From Nymphaea colorata (lineage: Eukaryota): a stretch of 64,000 nt of DNA. Positions 22,425 to 27,800 of this stretch are shown here, in pieces; positions within the stretch are counted from its first letter, which is position 1, and every line of letters starts with the position of its first letter. The notes below the pieces were generated by a model. It was not told the origin of the DNA and made no database searches. It saw only the letters and a program-made list of their open reading frames with translations. The stretch spans positions 21,452,001 through 21,516,000 of the forward strand of contig NC_045138.2 of NCBI RefSeq assembly GCF_008831285.2, read 5' to 3'. The position numbers and the translations under genes are program-made.

Positions 22425-22940
22425 CCATCAATGAAGAACGGTGACAGGATGTGATCCCAACAATACCCGGTGGAGCTGTCACAATGGATGATCTTGGCCG
22501 GACTGCTCTGGTTGCTCACTGCTGCCTGCATAAAGACTGGGAGACCGCAGACTGCTCGACGGGCCATCGAGCTTGCAGAAAGCAGGCTTCCGGTTGATAC
22601 CTGGCCGGAATATTATGACGGGAAACTTGGAAGATACATAGGAAAGCAAGCTCGAAAGTTTCAGACATGGTCAATTGCAGGGTATTTGGTTTCGAAGATG
22701 ATGTTGGAGGACTCTTCTCACTTGGGAATGATCTCTCTTGAAGAGAACAAGCAAATGAAGCCTCTCATCAAGAGATCCACATCTTGGACGTGCTAAGTAA
22801 GGATCCGTTGAAAGATAAATTGTTGTTGCTTTTGTAGCAGAGGCATAAGTTCCATTGCTTTCTAGTGGAGTCTAAATGTAGCATCATCTAATAAAATATT
22901 TAAAAGACATTCTTGAGGTTTTAGCTTTTATCTGCTAATG
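22425..22940 (+). pseudogene. 5'-truncated processed copy of the adjacent alkaline/neutral invertase (exon 3 end + exon 4 + 3'UTR), inverted relative to the parent
   Basis: GTGACAGGATGTGATCCCAACAATACCCGGTGGAGCTGTCACAATGGATGATCTTGGCCG (parent exon 3 end) joins directly to ..CTGCTCTGGTTGCTC (parent exon 4) with no intron. GGA>TGA at 22489 and a 1-nt loss at the junction. 5 aa differences over the last 97 aa. 3'UTR similarity continues to ~22940. Confidence 0.92.
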
Positions 22941-23434
22941 CAGAGAAGGAGAGGGACGACAAAATGGAAAATTAATAAGAAAAGGTGAAAAATCTGTCGC
23001 CTAAGCATAAAAACAGGAAAGCAAAATGCAACCACAAGCAAAAGGCAGCAAGAGCAAGAAAGAAAGCAAGATCTAGATGACAGCCAACAGAGAAAATGGG
23101 GTGGGCAATTGCCCACACAGTCCCACAAAAAGTATTCATTTTTATATTGAAACTTTATGTCAGTTTTTATTATTTACATATAGGAGCCTCTTAAAAACTT
23201 AAAATTATATAGCTAGCGTTCCTTAGCCGCAATTTTTTGGCTCTGCCTCTGCCAAAAACTCAGTTATTCAGTTCTTCCCAATTCTACCACCAGCAGCCAA
23301 GTAAAGGAAACAAATACAATAGCAAAACCACCCACGTCTAACAGAGAATTGCCCGGAGACTCAGAAAATGGAATTGGGAGCAGCAAGGCACGGAAATAAG
23401 TTGTTGTTTCGTCTGGATGAATCTACATCCCTAC

Positions 23435-23552
23435 GGGTTGTTTGGCAACAGCATCACAGAGTCATGAGATACTACAACATAATGTACATGAATCTGTCCC
23501 ATTATTTAGATACATAAAATAGTTACATATTATCATTGTTGCCAAATGACCC
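23435..23552. mobile_element. Short Tourist-like MITE
   Basis: TIRs GGGTTGTTTGGCAACA ... TGTTGCCAAATGACCC. Confidence 0.6.
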
Positions 23553-24800
23553 GAGGTCTGGTCCCGTAGAGAGAGATGGACCCGGTCTATTCCACTACTG
23601 TAAAGTGATAAACAATCATGTCAATACTTGAAAAGCAGGGGAATCAATCTATAGAATTTTCTTTTCAGAATTTGCGTGAATCGATACAAAGCACTTCATT
23701 CAAAATCAGGAGTAGATTTATAAGTTTTGAAAGATCAACGGCCCATCCTTCCCATGAATTTCGAAGTTGACAGCTCCAGTCTCAGTTCTTTGAACCATCA
23801 AACCTTATCTTCGGAGTAGAAAGCTGCAACTGCTCGAACACGCACTTTACACGTCTTAGCCTTGACTTCATAAAGGACCAACCCAACCGTCAGATTCAAA
23901 CGCGTGAACAGTTCTTCTAAGGGTCCAAAAATTTTCAATGCTCAAAGGATGGCAAAACTTGTAGTTAATGTGACAATTTAAATCATCCTATAGATTGATT
24001 TCTGTCTCTTTCATAACCCACAACTAATGCTAATTAAGGTGGCCAGCTGAAAGAAGAATAGTCGCGGCTTGAGCTTCACAATCAAGTGTTTCCCTAGAAT
24101 AAAGCTAAAATTTAATAGTATGTTGTTTGGGCACTGGAACGGAATGCTACGGTTCCGTTTCATCAAAATGAATACCAGCGTCAGTCACGGCAAAATGGTG
24201 CATTTTTTTATTTACTGTTCTCAGACACTCCATGGGATGCTCGAGAACAAACAGGGGTAATAACTCCAGAAATACTTGCACTTGTTACTCAAGAGAAGGA
24301 CGTTTGTTCCACATGTTCTGAGAACGACCGAACAGGATTTGCTGTTCCATCTGCTTCTAGAACAAAGAATAAAACATCAAAGTCCTAAGTAAGAACCCCA
24401 AGAAAAACACAAAAGTCGATTTATGGTCGGAGAGAAATACAGAAATTAGTACACCCTGTTCTTGCCAGTGCTCTGTTGAGCGACCAGACGACCCGTGTTA
24501 CAGCGGCTCGGAGGTCGTCGGCTGCTCGCAATGTGCAAGGCTTGCCGTAGATATCAGAAGTCATAAACAGCCTGTAAAACCAGACTGAGCAAACAATTTC
24601 CAGGGTTTTCTTCAAACAACCACTTCGAAAAACTACAAGCACCTGGATCCTCCATTAGAAGATAGAAGCTCAAAATTCATAAGAATGTCCAAGACGTTTT
24701 AAATATTTATTAGACGATGCATTTAGACTCCATAGAAAGCAATGAAACTCGTGCCTCTGCTACAAAAACAACAACAATTTATCTTTCAACGGATCCTTAC

Positions 24801-27800
24801 TTAGCACGTCCAGGATGTGGATCTCTTGATGAGAGGCTTCATTTGCTTGTCCTCTTCAAGAGAGATCATCCCCAAGTGAGAGGGGTCCTCCAACATCATC
24901 TTTGAAACCAAATATCCTGCAATTGACCATGTCTGAAACTTTCGAGCTTGCTTTCCTATGTATCTTCCAAGTTTCCCGTCATAATATTCCGGCCAGCTAT
25001 CAACTAGAAGCCTGCTTTCTGCCAACTCGATGGCCCGTCGAGCAATCTGCGGCCTCCCAGTCTTTATGCAGGCAGCAGTGAGCAACCAGAGCAGGACTGC
25101 GAGGAATAATTCATAAAATTGGGAAAATCTGTTAGTCATGTTGCATTTAAGGTGATCAAATAAAAAAAACAATTGAAATAAAAGGCATTATGATTTTGAC
25201 ACTAGCAAAATGAGCCGCAGTCAATGTGGGAGGTGTTTCCAGATAAATTATCTAATCCTCATGCCTGGCCAATAATGAACATGCCTTGGAAAGGTACATG
25301 CAATAAAGTATTCAGCAAATGCAACAAACGCTAGCAGTCAGAAAACGGCCATATAGGGCTGGAAACAATATTCAATAGCAAATACAAAAGTGGAACACAT
25401 GAACCAAAAGTTTTATATATTTCTCAGTTTACTCATTTTCCAATTTCATTCTCGAAGATATATGAGCATCTCTATTTTTCCTTTTACAAGGTATACCATT
25501 TTCTCTCTTTCTCCCTCTCTCTCTCTCTTAAGGGATTCAAACACATGTAAGCTTGTTCCTGCATCCAAAGGAGTGTTCAAGAATCTTGAAGAATGAGCAA
25601 GGAATACACCATTGCTGTTATCTCCCTCTCTCTGAAACCATTTGTATTGACAAGCTGTCATCTTCGTATCACAGCATTTCTTGGTCTAATCAGTGCATCA
25701 TTCATTCCATCACTAGTGTTGAATCTATTATTTCACCAAGTTAGAGGATTCAAAGTCAAGTTTGCTCCTGCATCTGGAGGAGTGGTCTATTCCTGAAGAA
25801 TATGCAAAGAAAGGCATTGATGTGAATCCTCCACAAACTAGTAAAGACAGGGTTCTTGAGGGAGGAGATAGCAAACTCTGTTGATGGTTCAAGCCTGCTT
25901 TTCTTTGTTGATCACTTGCCTTCTACACAACGAAATAACAAGAAGAGCTGAAAACGGAGATGGTTTCTCCGATAGAAAAAAAAGGCCAAATTGAGCATTA
26001 GTTGCTCCTGGGGATCCAAGCTTTTTGTGTTTAAAGGAAAACCCTTCTGAGCTATTATGGAATGCAAACAAAATGATGGACACAACCTAAGGAAAGGGAT
26101 AACAAGAAGAACTGATGTCAAATACAAGTAGAACCAATGTCAAATAGGTCCAGTAGATTGGTTCTGGGCTGACCCAAACCTAATCTAAGCTGTACTTGGG
26201 TGTACCAAATATCCATACCCATGTCTATTCTTGTCAACATGGGTATCCAGCCCAAAATCACGCACCCATGGTTGGCAAGTCAGGACAATCGCTAATAGTG
26301 TTGGAGAGCACGAAAAATTTAAAACTTTCCAACTTAATGATTGCAATGCTCTTAGGGTAAACTAAAGCCATAATTTGTAAATGTTATCACTTCCAGAATG
26401 TATTCCGAAGAGCAATGGAGAGGTTCCTTCCATATCAAACTCTTGCATTGACAGGCACATTTTTGAGTTGGATAAACCATTATACCACATCTTGTTTTGA
26501 ATAAATAGTCAACTTGGGGTCCTGGTAAACTGTAAATCAAAGTAAAAAAGCAGTTTGGATGATGCTTAGGTAAAAAGGAAGCCACTTGAAACATGAACAA
26601 AATCATCAAAGTTGAACAAAATGATGTACAGCAGAAGCTAAAATTGAATAAGAAAATCTAGCACATCACAACTGACAATTTGCTTGCTAGCTACTAACTG
26701 AAAAACAAAAAAAAAAATTGAGATGACTCTCAGCAATGAACAGAAAGTAAGGGAGAAATAAAAAATGGAAAATAAGTCTTAATTCTCCTAACCTGGCCAA
26801 GATCCTCCATTGTGATAGCTCCACCGGGTATTTTTGGGATCACAACCTGTCACTATTCTCCATTCATGGCTTTCTATTGCTGGATAAGCAATCTTCAGAG
26901 GCATCTCCCCAACTAGCTCTTCCCAACGTGCTTCTATAAGATCCATGATAGCCATAGATTGCTCCGGAGTCGCAAGAGATGATAAGATTGCTACGCAATT
27001 TCCCAGTGCAAACCATCGGAAGTCCATTCTAGCAGGACTAACGTTTCCAACAAAGTACCCTCCACGAGTTGGCATAAAATCAAATACCCAGTCTGGGATT
27101 GAATCAGGAATGACATTGAATTTGTTAACTGCTGTATGAGAATATTCCTCGGTCTTGTAGCGATAAATGTCATTTAGCTGCCGGAAATCAAGCCAGAAGT
27201 AACTTCGCATATGATAACTCAAAGCATGCAACCTTCTCACAATTCTTTCAATAAATTCTTTACCCTCTGCATCATGTTTAAGCATGGAAAGAGCACACCT
27301 CAATGCCATGAAGAAGAGTGCTTGAATTTCAATAGGGTAACCATATATACCCTGCACAATGCATCACAAAATTAAATAAGACTGTATTAGGAAGCGTAGC
27401 ATGGAACTGCATATTTTGGAAATAATTAAGTAAATAAACTGAGAAAATATGCCACAGCAATGTGCAGAACTGAAAGAAAGAACAAAGAAAATATCACCCA
27501 TCTCATTGGGAAATAAAGCATTGTAGTCTCCTGAACCCAAGAGCACCATGAAATTTTGAATGACCTCAAGCTATGAATACCTAAAATATATTATTTGTTC
27601 ATGCAAGCAATAACACTTCAGAAAGATGGTCAAAGAGAGAAAAAGGATATACAAAGGCAGACCAAGCTGAATTTGTCAAAATGGTAGCTTTTACATACAA
27701 AAATACCTAATAGCAAGTTTATTCAGCACACTTTTTTTTTTCAGCAAAATCAGATACAAGACTTCAATGCCACAAATGAAAGGGACAAAGGACAATAAAT

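Follow-up and report, generated by a model that had tools for sequence, protein, structure and literature searches.

Related systems

Processed pseudogenes and plant retrocopies have lost their introns at the splice sites, are truncated at the 5' end, include 3'UTR sequence, and carry stop codons and frameshifts. All of these traits recur in a partial copy of an invertase gene within the window (the whole stretch of 64,000 nt analysed here), but this copy is inverted, is separated from its parent by 1.7 kb, and has neither a poly(A) tail nor a target-site duplication. Retrocopies are assumed to land randomly. Because of that assumption, at least one survey in rice dropped retrocopies near their parents: 126 of the 446 candidates of an earlier survey lay no more than 100 kb from the parent and, according to the cited part of that paper, were discarded in the later one (PMC3240961).

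Class 2 templated sequence insertions, which are human cDNA patches at double-strand breaks, resemble the copy in lacking a target-site duplication and poly(A); they show junction microhomology, for which the copy has a candidate at its 5' end, and the cited section of that work has spliced cDNAs among the donors (PMC5110952). Their donors are distant, however, while here, in a plant, the donor is the adjacent gene. A spliced transcript also acts as template near its own gene when yeast and human cells repair breaks from RNA; in the cases covered by the cited passages the gene itself is repaired and its intron deleted, whereas the invertase gene is intact and the copy is an addition outside it (PMC12065846). 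Literature searches found no plant case of RNA-templated break repair and no paper on the invertase-copy locus. Single-copy Pack-TIRs show a strong bias towards nearby donors, a break within a repeat, and microhomology, to which the adjacent donor, the proposed break and the candidate microhomology here would correspond; they are modelled, in the cited part, as DNA-templated and with both element ends flanking (PMC8277862), while spliced sequence was inserted here and self-BLAST at E 0.01 revealed no element ends around it.

Nearby inverted gene copies are also known from PAI1-PAI4 and VIM4-VIM2 of Arabidopsis and GmIRCHS of soybean, and PAI1-PAI4 and GmIRCHS have the same tail-to-tail layout as here (PMC13213937, PMC3406792). 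As described in the cited portions of these sources, read-through together with small RNAs or dsRNA was shown in those systems, in contrast to the present locus, where no read-through was seen. In VIM4-VIM2, read-through required a 2.8-kb deletion, and the arms of GmIRCHS are separated by 78 bp (PMC13213937, PMC3406792); unlike both, the spacer here measures 1.7 kb and the parent's own 3' end is intact. By analogy with VIM4-VIM2, loss of spacer sequence by deletion could activate the arm.

With somewhat better than even confidence, we regard the copy as a broken, intron-less fragment that was likely patched in from spliced RNA or cDNA at a break beside its own gene, and that is now probably inert.

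Structure of the invertase copy

The plant belongs with the water lilies and their relatives, and the parent encodes a cytosolic alkaline/neutral invertase (GH100), a sucrose-cleaving enzyme, with a full frame of 566 aa (Table 1). Inverted arms lie at 22492-22864 and 24733-25105 (373 nt, 94%), and a second inverted pair at 22425-22499 and 26795-26869 (75 nt, 89%). Aligned with gaps to the spliced parent, the copy matches without a break over 22425-22943 (+), the parent side running down to 24650. It begins with the final 75 nt of exon 3, continues through exon 4 and takes in about 145 nt of the 3'UTR. It lies downstream of the parent on the opposite strand, tail-to-tail. The original observation, that it matches the spliced invertase mRNA, is confirmed by this unbroken alignment and the lack of the 1,696-nt intron 3, and a processed origin is thereby supported; the identity claimed for 92 of the last 97 aa is likewise borne out, the same residue being encoded in 92 of 97 codons.

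Table 1. Coordinates of the invertase copy, its parent gene and neighbouring features in the window.
Feature	Position	Strand	Remarks
Low-copy repeat cut off at copy 5' end	22355..22428	.	Contig comparison
Copy of invertase exon 3, last 75 nt	22425..22499	+	8 differences, 2 of them stop codons
Exon 3-exon 4 junction, present in spliced form	22497..22503	+	Relative to mRNA, 1 base missing and 2 changed; frameshift
Copy of exon 4 coding part	22503..22796	+	14 differences in 294 nt; Pfam PF12899 match
Copy of 3'UTR	22797..22943	+	AATAAA at 22890; homology stops without poly(A) tail
Spacer, putative hairpin loop	22944..24649	.	1.7 kb; also in relatives
High-copy short repeat	23101..23252	.	Presumably MITE-like; AATAAA on minus strand at 23171
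Fading RNA tail past shared UTR	23726..24649	- (probable)	X21 depth
Parent 3'UTR common to copy	24650..24800	-	Most transcripts end nearby
Parent exon 4	24801..25096	-	Gene model
Parent intron 3	25097..26792	-	1,696 nt, GT..AG; absent from copy
Parent exons 1-3	32148-31735, 30065-29634, 27351-26793	-	Within 26793..32148

The edges of the missing intron fall no more than 2 nt from the splice sites, and no intron-3 sequence was found near the copy by alignment or self-BLAST. The copy holds only transcribed sequence and ends near the mRNA 3' end, a position that is approximate as depth was taken in 111-nt bins: around the matching end, parent RNA depth drops from 86% through 30% to 14% of that over exon 4. 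Since the end of the copy coincides with this fall, its extent corresponds to the end of the mRNA.

The junction itself is unclean, three positions in four being changed, and this stands against a patch from spliced RNA. As CAG ends both splice sites, a join at the DNA level could also have produced such a junction. The gene end would then have been duplicated in inverted orientation as DNA, with the intron lost either in the same event, by a template switch at the shared CAG, or later, through conversion by cDNA. Capture of nearby DNA at breaks in repeats is documented for animal Pack-TIRs, 160 of 281 lying within 15 kb of the parent in the cited data (PMC8277862), and Sakai and colleagues, in the cited part of their survey, were sceptical of retrocopies near parents (PMC3240961). 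We nevertheless consider a DNA-level origin unlikely: the 3' end of the copy is also that of the mRNA, leftover intron is lacking, and the sequence up to 100 nt from the two splice sites offers 898 pairs of 3-nt microhomology, so that use of the spliced pair by chance would be improbable.

Ends, flanks and origin

Neither of the marks of a LINE-made retrocopy was seen at the ends. The longest A run in 22944-23100 is 5, in sequence that is A-rich (51%) beyond the 3' end, and no target-site duplication abuts the copy, the best candidate being a 6-nt match 14-33 nt off the ends. Poly(A) tails and target-site duplications can decay over time. The absence of both is a feature of class 2 templated insertions, and the ends thus look like those left by break repair, in support of the origin first proposed.

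The repeat to the left of the copy has other sequence as its continuation in 14 contigs of DNA run X2, and this continuation was not found within the window. Its last 4 letters equal the first 4 of the copy (loose-end consensus, agreement 0.69), which may be a 4-letter microhomology at the 5' end. Self-BLAST of 21500-24650 at E 0.01, which short or decayed ends could escape, gave no inverted match between the flanks. The spacer has no Rfam match and, in 8 frames, no Pfam match above cut-off; for 21000-27500 as a whole Rfam gave 0 matches, and none of 10 flank, spacer or antisense frames reached the Pfam cut-off.

The truncated 5' end and anchored 3' end would also suit an ordinary retrotransposon product, made by LINE priming or transported within an LTR or DNA element, which landed or hopped beside the parent and whose hallmarks have since decayed. 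Repeats do occur on both sides, one X1 contig having the left repeat and that at 23097 in order, and the sequence beyond the 3' end is A-rich. Against this are the missing poly(A) run and abutting duplication, the flanks without an inverted match in self-BLAST, and the low chance of landing within 5 kb of the parent, which is about 1 in 40,000 if the genome is taken to be 400 Mb. Such an origin is also unlikely.

Under the favoured reading, repair from a spliced template, a DNA break would have arisen about 1.7 kb downstream of the invertase gene, within a repeat; spliced invertase RNA or its cDNA would have served as the template of the patch, which was presumably joined through microhomology at its 5' end. 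The insertion would have been in place before the lineage separated from that of organism D, a relative at about 6% divergence, and neutral decay to an inert fragment would have followed. That the copy is, more narrowly, a scar of germ-line repair in cis by the still-local spliced transcript is a serious possibility, considered on origin alone, although we hold it at rather less than an even chance. If RNA templates repair close to where a gene is transcribed, the expected trace is a copy of this kind, spliced, at 1.7 kb from the gene and free of retrotransposon hallmarks. The weight of a single inert fragment is modest, and the local RNA-templated origin is its interesting part.

Assembly and probable occurrence in a relative

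Contigs of DNA run X1 covering 21916-22532, 22799-24798 and 25065-27400 show 0 letters other than those of the window and one 1-nt gap, in the last of them. They cross both copy ends and the spacer without difference, which argues against the misassembly that the original prediction had named as a danger. Run X1 consists of short reads, and the window may itself derive from it, so that it is not independent; an artefact could draw on this, but numerous fixed differences separate the arms and the same junctions recur in organism D, making an artefact extremely improbable. Depth in X1 is 48-50 over the copy compared with 37 over single-copy DNA, and there is one paralog contig, at 81%. Neither depth nor contigs of this run gave any sign of an extra close copy or a closer intron-less paralog, and this, along with the common 3'UTR, supports the adjacent gene as the parent, as first proposed.

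Seven of 24 listed runs were compared with the window. In organism D, contigs extend across all three junctions of the copy: the one at its 5' end, the spliced one and the one at its 3' end. They were assembled from depth columns, and that over the spliced junction, which has the same form as in the window, reaches about 29 letters on one side. Organism D thus appears to carry the copy at the same site, an outcome of the comparison with related species that the earlier analysis had envisaged. An empty, pre-insertion site was not found in the relatives examined. Holes over the exon-4 core of the copy occur in X2, X13 and X18 and are evidence neither way. An inversion of the spacer, considered from opposite-strand joints, was dropped, organism D having both parent-type and copy-type UTR contigs.

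Transcription and the predicted hairpin

The two nearby inverted arms are able to pair, as in an inverted-repeat siRNA locus, with a predicted duplex energy of -759 kcal/mol and 123 of 517 21-mers of the copy matching the parent mRNA exactly. Pairing of the arms, as in the stem of about 500 bp first proposed, is therefore feasible, but the length must be reduced to about 450 bp (exon 4 and UTR), as unspliced RNA offers the exon-3 part no contiguous partner; in spliced RNA only, this part would add 75 nt.

RNA run X21, of which about 6% was read, is the only informative one of three; its tissue is unstated and the library is unstranded. X22 has 0 reads on the window and X23 has 145, all on the high-copy repeat, with no invertase reads in either; none of the 24 listed runs carries a small-RNA label. 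The parent is expressed in X21 at a depth of about 104. Beyond the shared UTR, depth is 14% of that of exon 4 at 24503-24613 and about 1% at 23726-24391, and reaches 0 at 23725, some 800 nt short of the copy. It is 0 at 22616-23059 and 23171-23725 (999 nt between tail and copy). At 9 diagnostic sites there were 0 copy-type reads (69-95 reads each at 7, 10 each at 2), and the reads placed on the 5' part of the copy all have the parent's letters. Read-through into the copy is thus below about 0.4-0.9% of transcripts in X21, where a diced hairpin RNA would be invisible, and no transcript spans both arms. The built-in hairpin or antisense module of the original prediction, with its invertase transcripts extending into the copy, therefore finds no support in this run, and an inert relic is likelier than a silencing switch.

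A hairpin might still form conditionally, if read-through over the 1.7 kb in some tissue or under stress gave rise to the 450-bp stem and to small RNAs that damp the invertase. The geometry permits it, a little RNA does continue past the main 3' end, the copy has persisted in two species, and rice offers a precedent in a two-pseudogene hairpin with a 1,283-nt loop, as given in the cited part of that study (PMC2708354). The silent stretch before the copy, the absence of copy-type reads and the good expression of the parent all speak against it, as does the decay described below, and we judge it quite improbable. It appears, rather, that an inverted arm can adjoin an expressed gene across a species split with no visible silencing, the 3' end of the parent holding.

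Divergence and age

The exon-3 part of the copy has stop codons at 22434 and 22489, and the frame is broken, the junction being 1 base short with 2 bases changed. In exon 4, 10 of the 14 differences are derived in the copy, and in the other 4 the copy retains the letter of the relatives. Changes derived in the copy are 11 non-synonymous (including the 2 stops) and 7 synonymous, compared with 0 and 4 in the parent. Such disabling changes under relaxed selection are typical of processed pseudogenes. Exon 4 of the copy has changed by 3.4%, against about 3.0% expected per lineage, which is close to the neutral rate, and a dN/dS of about 0.43 fits neutrality (P 0.07-0.25) without proving it.

The copy is probably old, predating the split from organism D, and its likeness to young small-RNA loci, as originally suggested, gives way to a picture of age and decay. 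The copy retains every one of the 8 CG sites of the parent arm, so that this sequence-based test of CG loss gave no methylation footprint; under assumed rates, the absence of loss has P 0.07 if they are raised fivefold and 0.004 if tenfold, a further point against the conditional hairpin.

Divergence from the parent is lower in the exon-4 arm (10 of 294) than in the exon-3 part (8 of 75; Fisher P 0.015), a point in favour of the conditional hairpin, and the two exon-4 arms may since have undergone gene conversion. The longest identical run between them, 81 nt, gave no significant signal of conversion (P 0.15). That an RNA patch in cis, an arm whose likeness gene conversion has maintained and a conditional damping of the invertase by a hairpin should all hold together is very doubtful. 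If cis repair and function were both true, local spliced patches would be a class overlooked because pipelines for retrocopies filter them out, and small-RNA loci would have a new way to arise.

In a protein search with the frame of the copy, no annotated product of the copy was seen among the 120 proteins listed, 2 of which had one copy-type residue each.

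Structure of the copy and its parent gene

The parent encodes a cytosolic alkaline/neutral invertase (PF12899), and its best match among 2,604 was a protein of Victoria cruziana (99% identity in exon 3, 91% in exon 1), which suggests that the plant is a further member of the water-lily family. The invertase model of that species (P0001, 469 aa) ends where exon 3 ends and has no counterpart of exon 4 (window 24804–25094); either the gene model is wrong, or the two plants truly differ at the exon that is duplicated in the window. The copy aligns with the spliced parent without a break and without intron 3, ending within shared 3'UTR opposite 24650, and 92 of its last 97 residues are the same. 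This confirms the spliced retrocopy beside its parent described in the original prediction, which did not mention that the exon-3 part carries two stop codons, nor that the spliced junction is frameshifted. At this junction (22497–22503), two altered bases correspond to an inversion of the letter pair that a short CAG/CTG inverted pair encloses, and may represent one single event.

Coordinates of the invertase copy, its parent and repeats to the left
Feature	Position	Strand	Size	Remarks
Direct repeat	20257–20754		127 nt	units 371 nt apart
Short repeat	21560–21607			very high copy, ~80x single-copy depth in its bin
Copy	22425–22943	+		intron-less
Spacer	22944–24649			between copy and parent
Inverted match 1	22492–22864 with 24733–25105		373 nt	94%, repeat finder
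Inverted match 2	22425–22499 with 26795–26869		75 nt	89%, repeat finder
Parent exon 1	32148–31735	-		open frame of exons 1–4, 566 aa
Parent exon 2	30065–29634	-		
Parent exon 3	27351–26793	-		
Parent intron 3		-	1,696 nt	GT..AG
Parent exon 4	25096–24801	-		

Contigs of DNA run X1, possibly the source sample, showed no other letters over 21916–22532 (left flank to spliced junction), 22799–24798 (copy end, entire spacer and parent UTR) and 25065–27400, which speaks against a misassembly. Since X1 depth over the copy is 48–50 where single-copy DNA has 37, and a single further contig resembling invertase is 81% alike, no intron-less paralog closer than the adjacent gene is indicated within this run.

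Origin of the copy

The copy has the properties of a processed pseudogene fragment and does not have those of a LINE-primed insertion. There is no poly(A) tail at its 3' end (51% A, longest A run 5), and no target-site duplication was found abutting its ends. The 3' end sits where parent RNA depth drops from 86% to 30% and then 14% of the exon-4 level, as expected of a copied mRNA. A DNA-level join at the CAG that terminates both splice sites would be an alternative to an RNA template, but this is only one of 898 3-nt pairs of that kind within 100 nt. To the left, the adjoining 70 nt are part of a low-copy repeat that goes on differently in 14 contigs of run X2, and this continuation was not found within the 64-kb window. 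Four letters appear to be common to the end of the repeat, as given by a loose-end consensus with 0.69 agreement, and the beginning of the copy; together, these features would fit a patch into a break, with target sequence lost.

The favoured origin is largely the one originally proposed, templated repair of a local break by cDNA or RNA; the spliced structure and the lack of poly(A) and target-site duplication fit it, while the break itself we infer, no empty site having been seen. A break in the repeat, some 2.2 kb beyond the parent's 3' end on its downstream side, would have been filled by about 520 nt copied from the 3' end of the parent's spliced RNA, or its cDNA, and joined by short homology. 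The piece lacks a start and has gained stops and a frameshift; parent transcripts terminate before it (as seen in one run), and the arms possibly exchange sequence on occasion. We regard this account of a break patch that became an inert copy as moderately probable. RNA-templated repair in cis has been described in yeast and human cells (PMC12065846), and capture of nearby sequence at breaks in repeats has been described for Pack-TIRs (PMC8277862). Class 2 templated insertions (PMC5110952) are similar, but here the donor adjoins the copy. In rice, 126 of 446 retrocopy candidates lay within 100 kb of their parents and were discarded in a later study (PMC3240961). Literature searches found no paper on the invertase-copy locus.

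Relatives and sequence divergence

Organism D, a relative known from contigs of run X13, is 6.1% diverged from the window, as measured on 10 contig pieces of non-coding sequence, exon pieces being excluded. One D contig (depth about 3.0) spans the 5' junction; it agrees with the copy at 22439, 22440 and 22449 and with the parent at 22434. Another (depth 3.9) spans the spliced junction, with ~29 letters on one side, without the base added in mRNA reads; it stops near 22532, where merging with the parent's path is expected. Record 1 (22903–23078) spans the copy's 3' junction, and record 6 (24607–24786) is parent-type UTR. Combined, and with letters taken from depth columns, these pieces indicate that D very probably has the copy at this site too, whereas the two stop codons seem to be younger than the split from D. 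One further D contig joins UTR directly to spacer (22961/24706), which is interpreted as an allele of the copy that has lost about 70 nt. Organism B (run X2) has two contigs over 23101–23683, of which one matches the window exactly and the other differs by about 9%, as in a hybrid.

Changes assigned to the copy comprise 11 non-synonymous and 7 synonymous, against 0 and 4 in the parent (copy dN/dS about 0.43; P 0.07–0.25 against neutral). At four exon-4 sites, all synonymous, the copy has D's letter and differs from the window's parent; at one of these, organism F, another relative, agrees with the parent. The copy's exon-4 arm has changed by 3.4%, close to the 3.0% that is half the distance between the two species. 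Changes are denser in the exon-3 part (8/75 vs 10/294 in exon 4, P 0.015; P 0.095 against all 14 exon-4 differences), and no separate D contigs were seen for the exon-4 core of D's copy. Gene conversion between the arms would account for both, although contig filtering also explains the latter; an 81-nt stretch identical in the two arms does not reach significance (P 0.15). The copy keeps all 8 CG sites, which argues weakly against long methylation. In parent exon 4 (24813–25096), 4/4 parent-assigned changes are C:G to T:A, too few for a methylation footprint.

Transcription and the hairpin question

Three raw RNA runs were mapped, and invertase reads occurred only in X21, an unstranded run of which about 6%, or 11.6 million reads, was scanned and 387 reads mapped. 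From about 104 in exon 4, depth falls past the shared UTR to 14 (24503–24613), 6.5 (24392–24502) and 0.5–1.7 (23726–24391), and is 0 at 23171–23725 and 22616–23059, with three reads between (23060–23170) on a high-copy repeat. Reads over the first 130 nt of the copy are the parent's spliced reads, the mapping reference being without exon 3. At 9 diagnostic sites no copy-type letters occurred in X21 (e.g. parent's 95/95 at 22461 and 10/10 at 22552). Read-through into the copy, on which the proposed self-silencing hairpin depended, was not seen in this run (upper bound about 0.4–0.9%), leaving the regulatory role unsupported where testable. Against this reading stand the single tissue, the use of steady-state RNA, the weak tail beyond the main 3' end and the very stable predicted stem (-759 kcal/mol; exact 21-mers 123/517); a hairpin RNA would soon be diced and would be a poor template for copying, and hence be hard to see. 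PAI1-PAI4, VIM4-VIM2 and GmIRCHS (PMC13213937, PMC3406792) share the layout, as does a hairpin of rice pseudogenes whose loop measures 1,283 nt (PMC2708354), but the invertase-copy locus differs in its lack of detected read-through.

Other features of the window

A single frame of 716 aa (42610–44757) has one Pfam match, weak, kinase-like and below cut-off. A fucosyltransferase-like gene (Glyco_transf_10 match at 9503–10060) lies in two parts separated by a long gap, in which direct repeats (12047–12215 and 15557–15724, 82–88%) enclose broken frames. One of these has a PAS match (12841–13197) and is reminiscent of phytochrome; the whole stretch (12047–15724) may represent capture of part of a gene by an element with terminal repeats. 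Three common blocks (66–131 nt, 85–89%) link 14021–14555, inside this stretch, with 47202–48164, representing a dispersed element.
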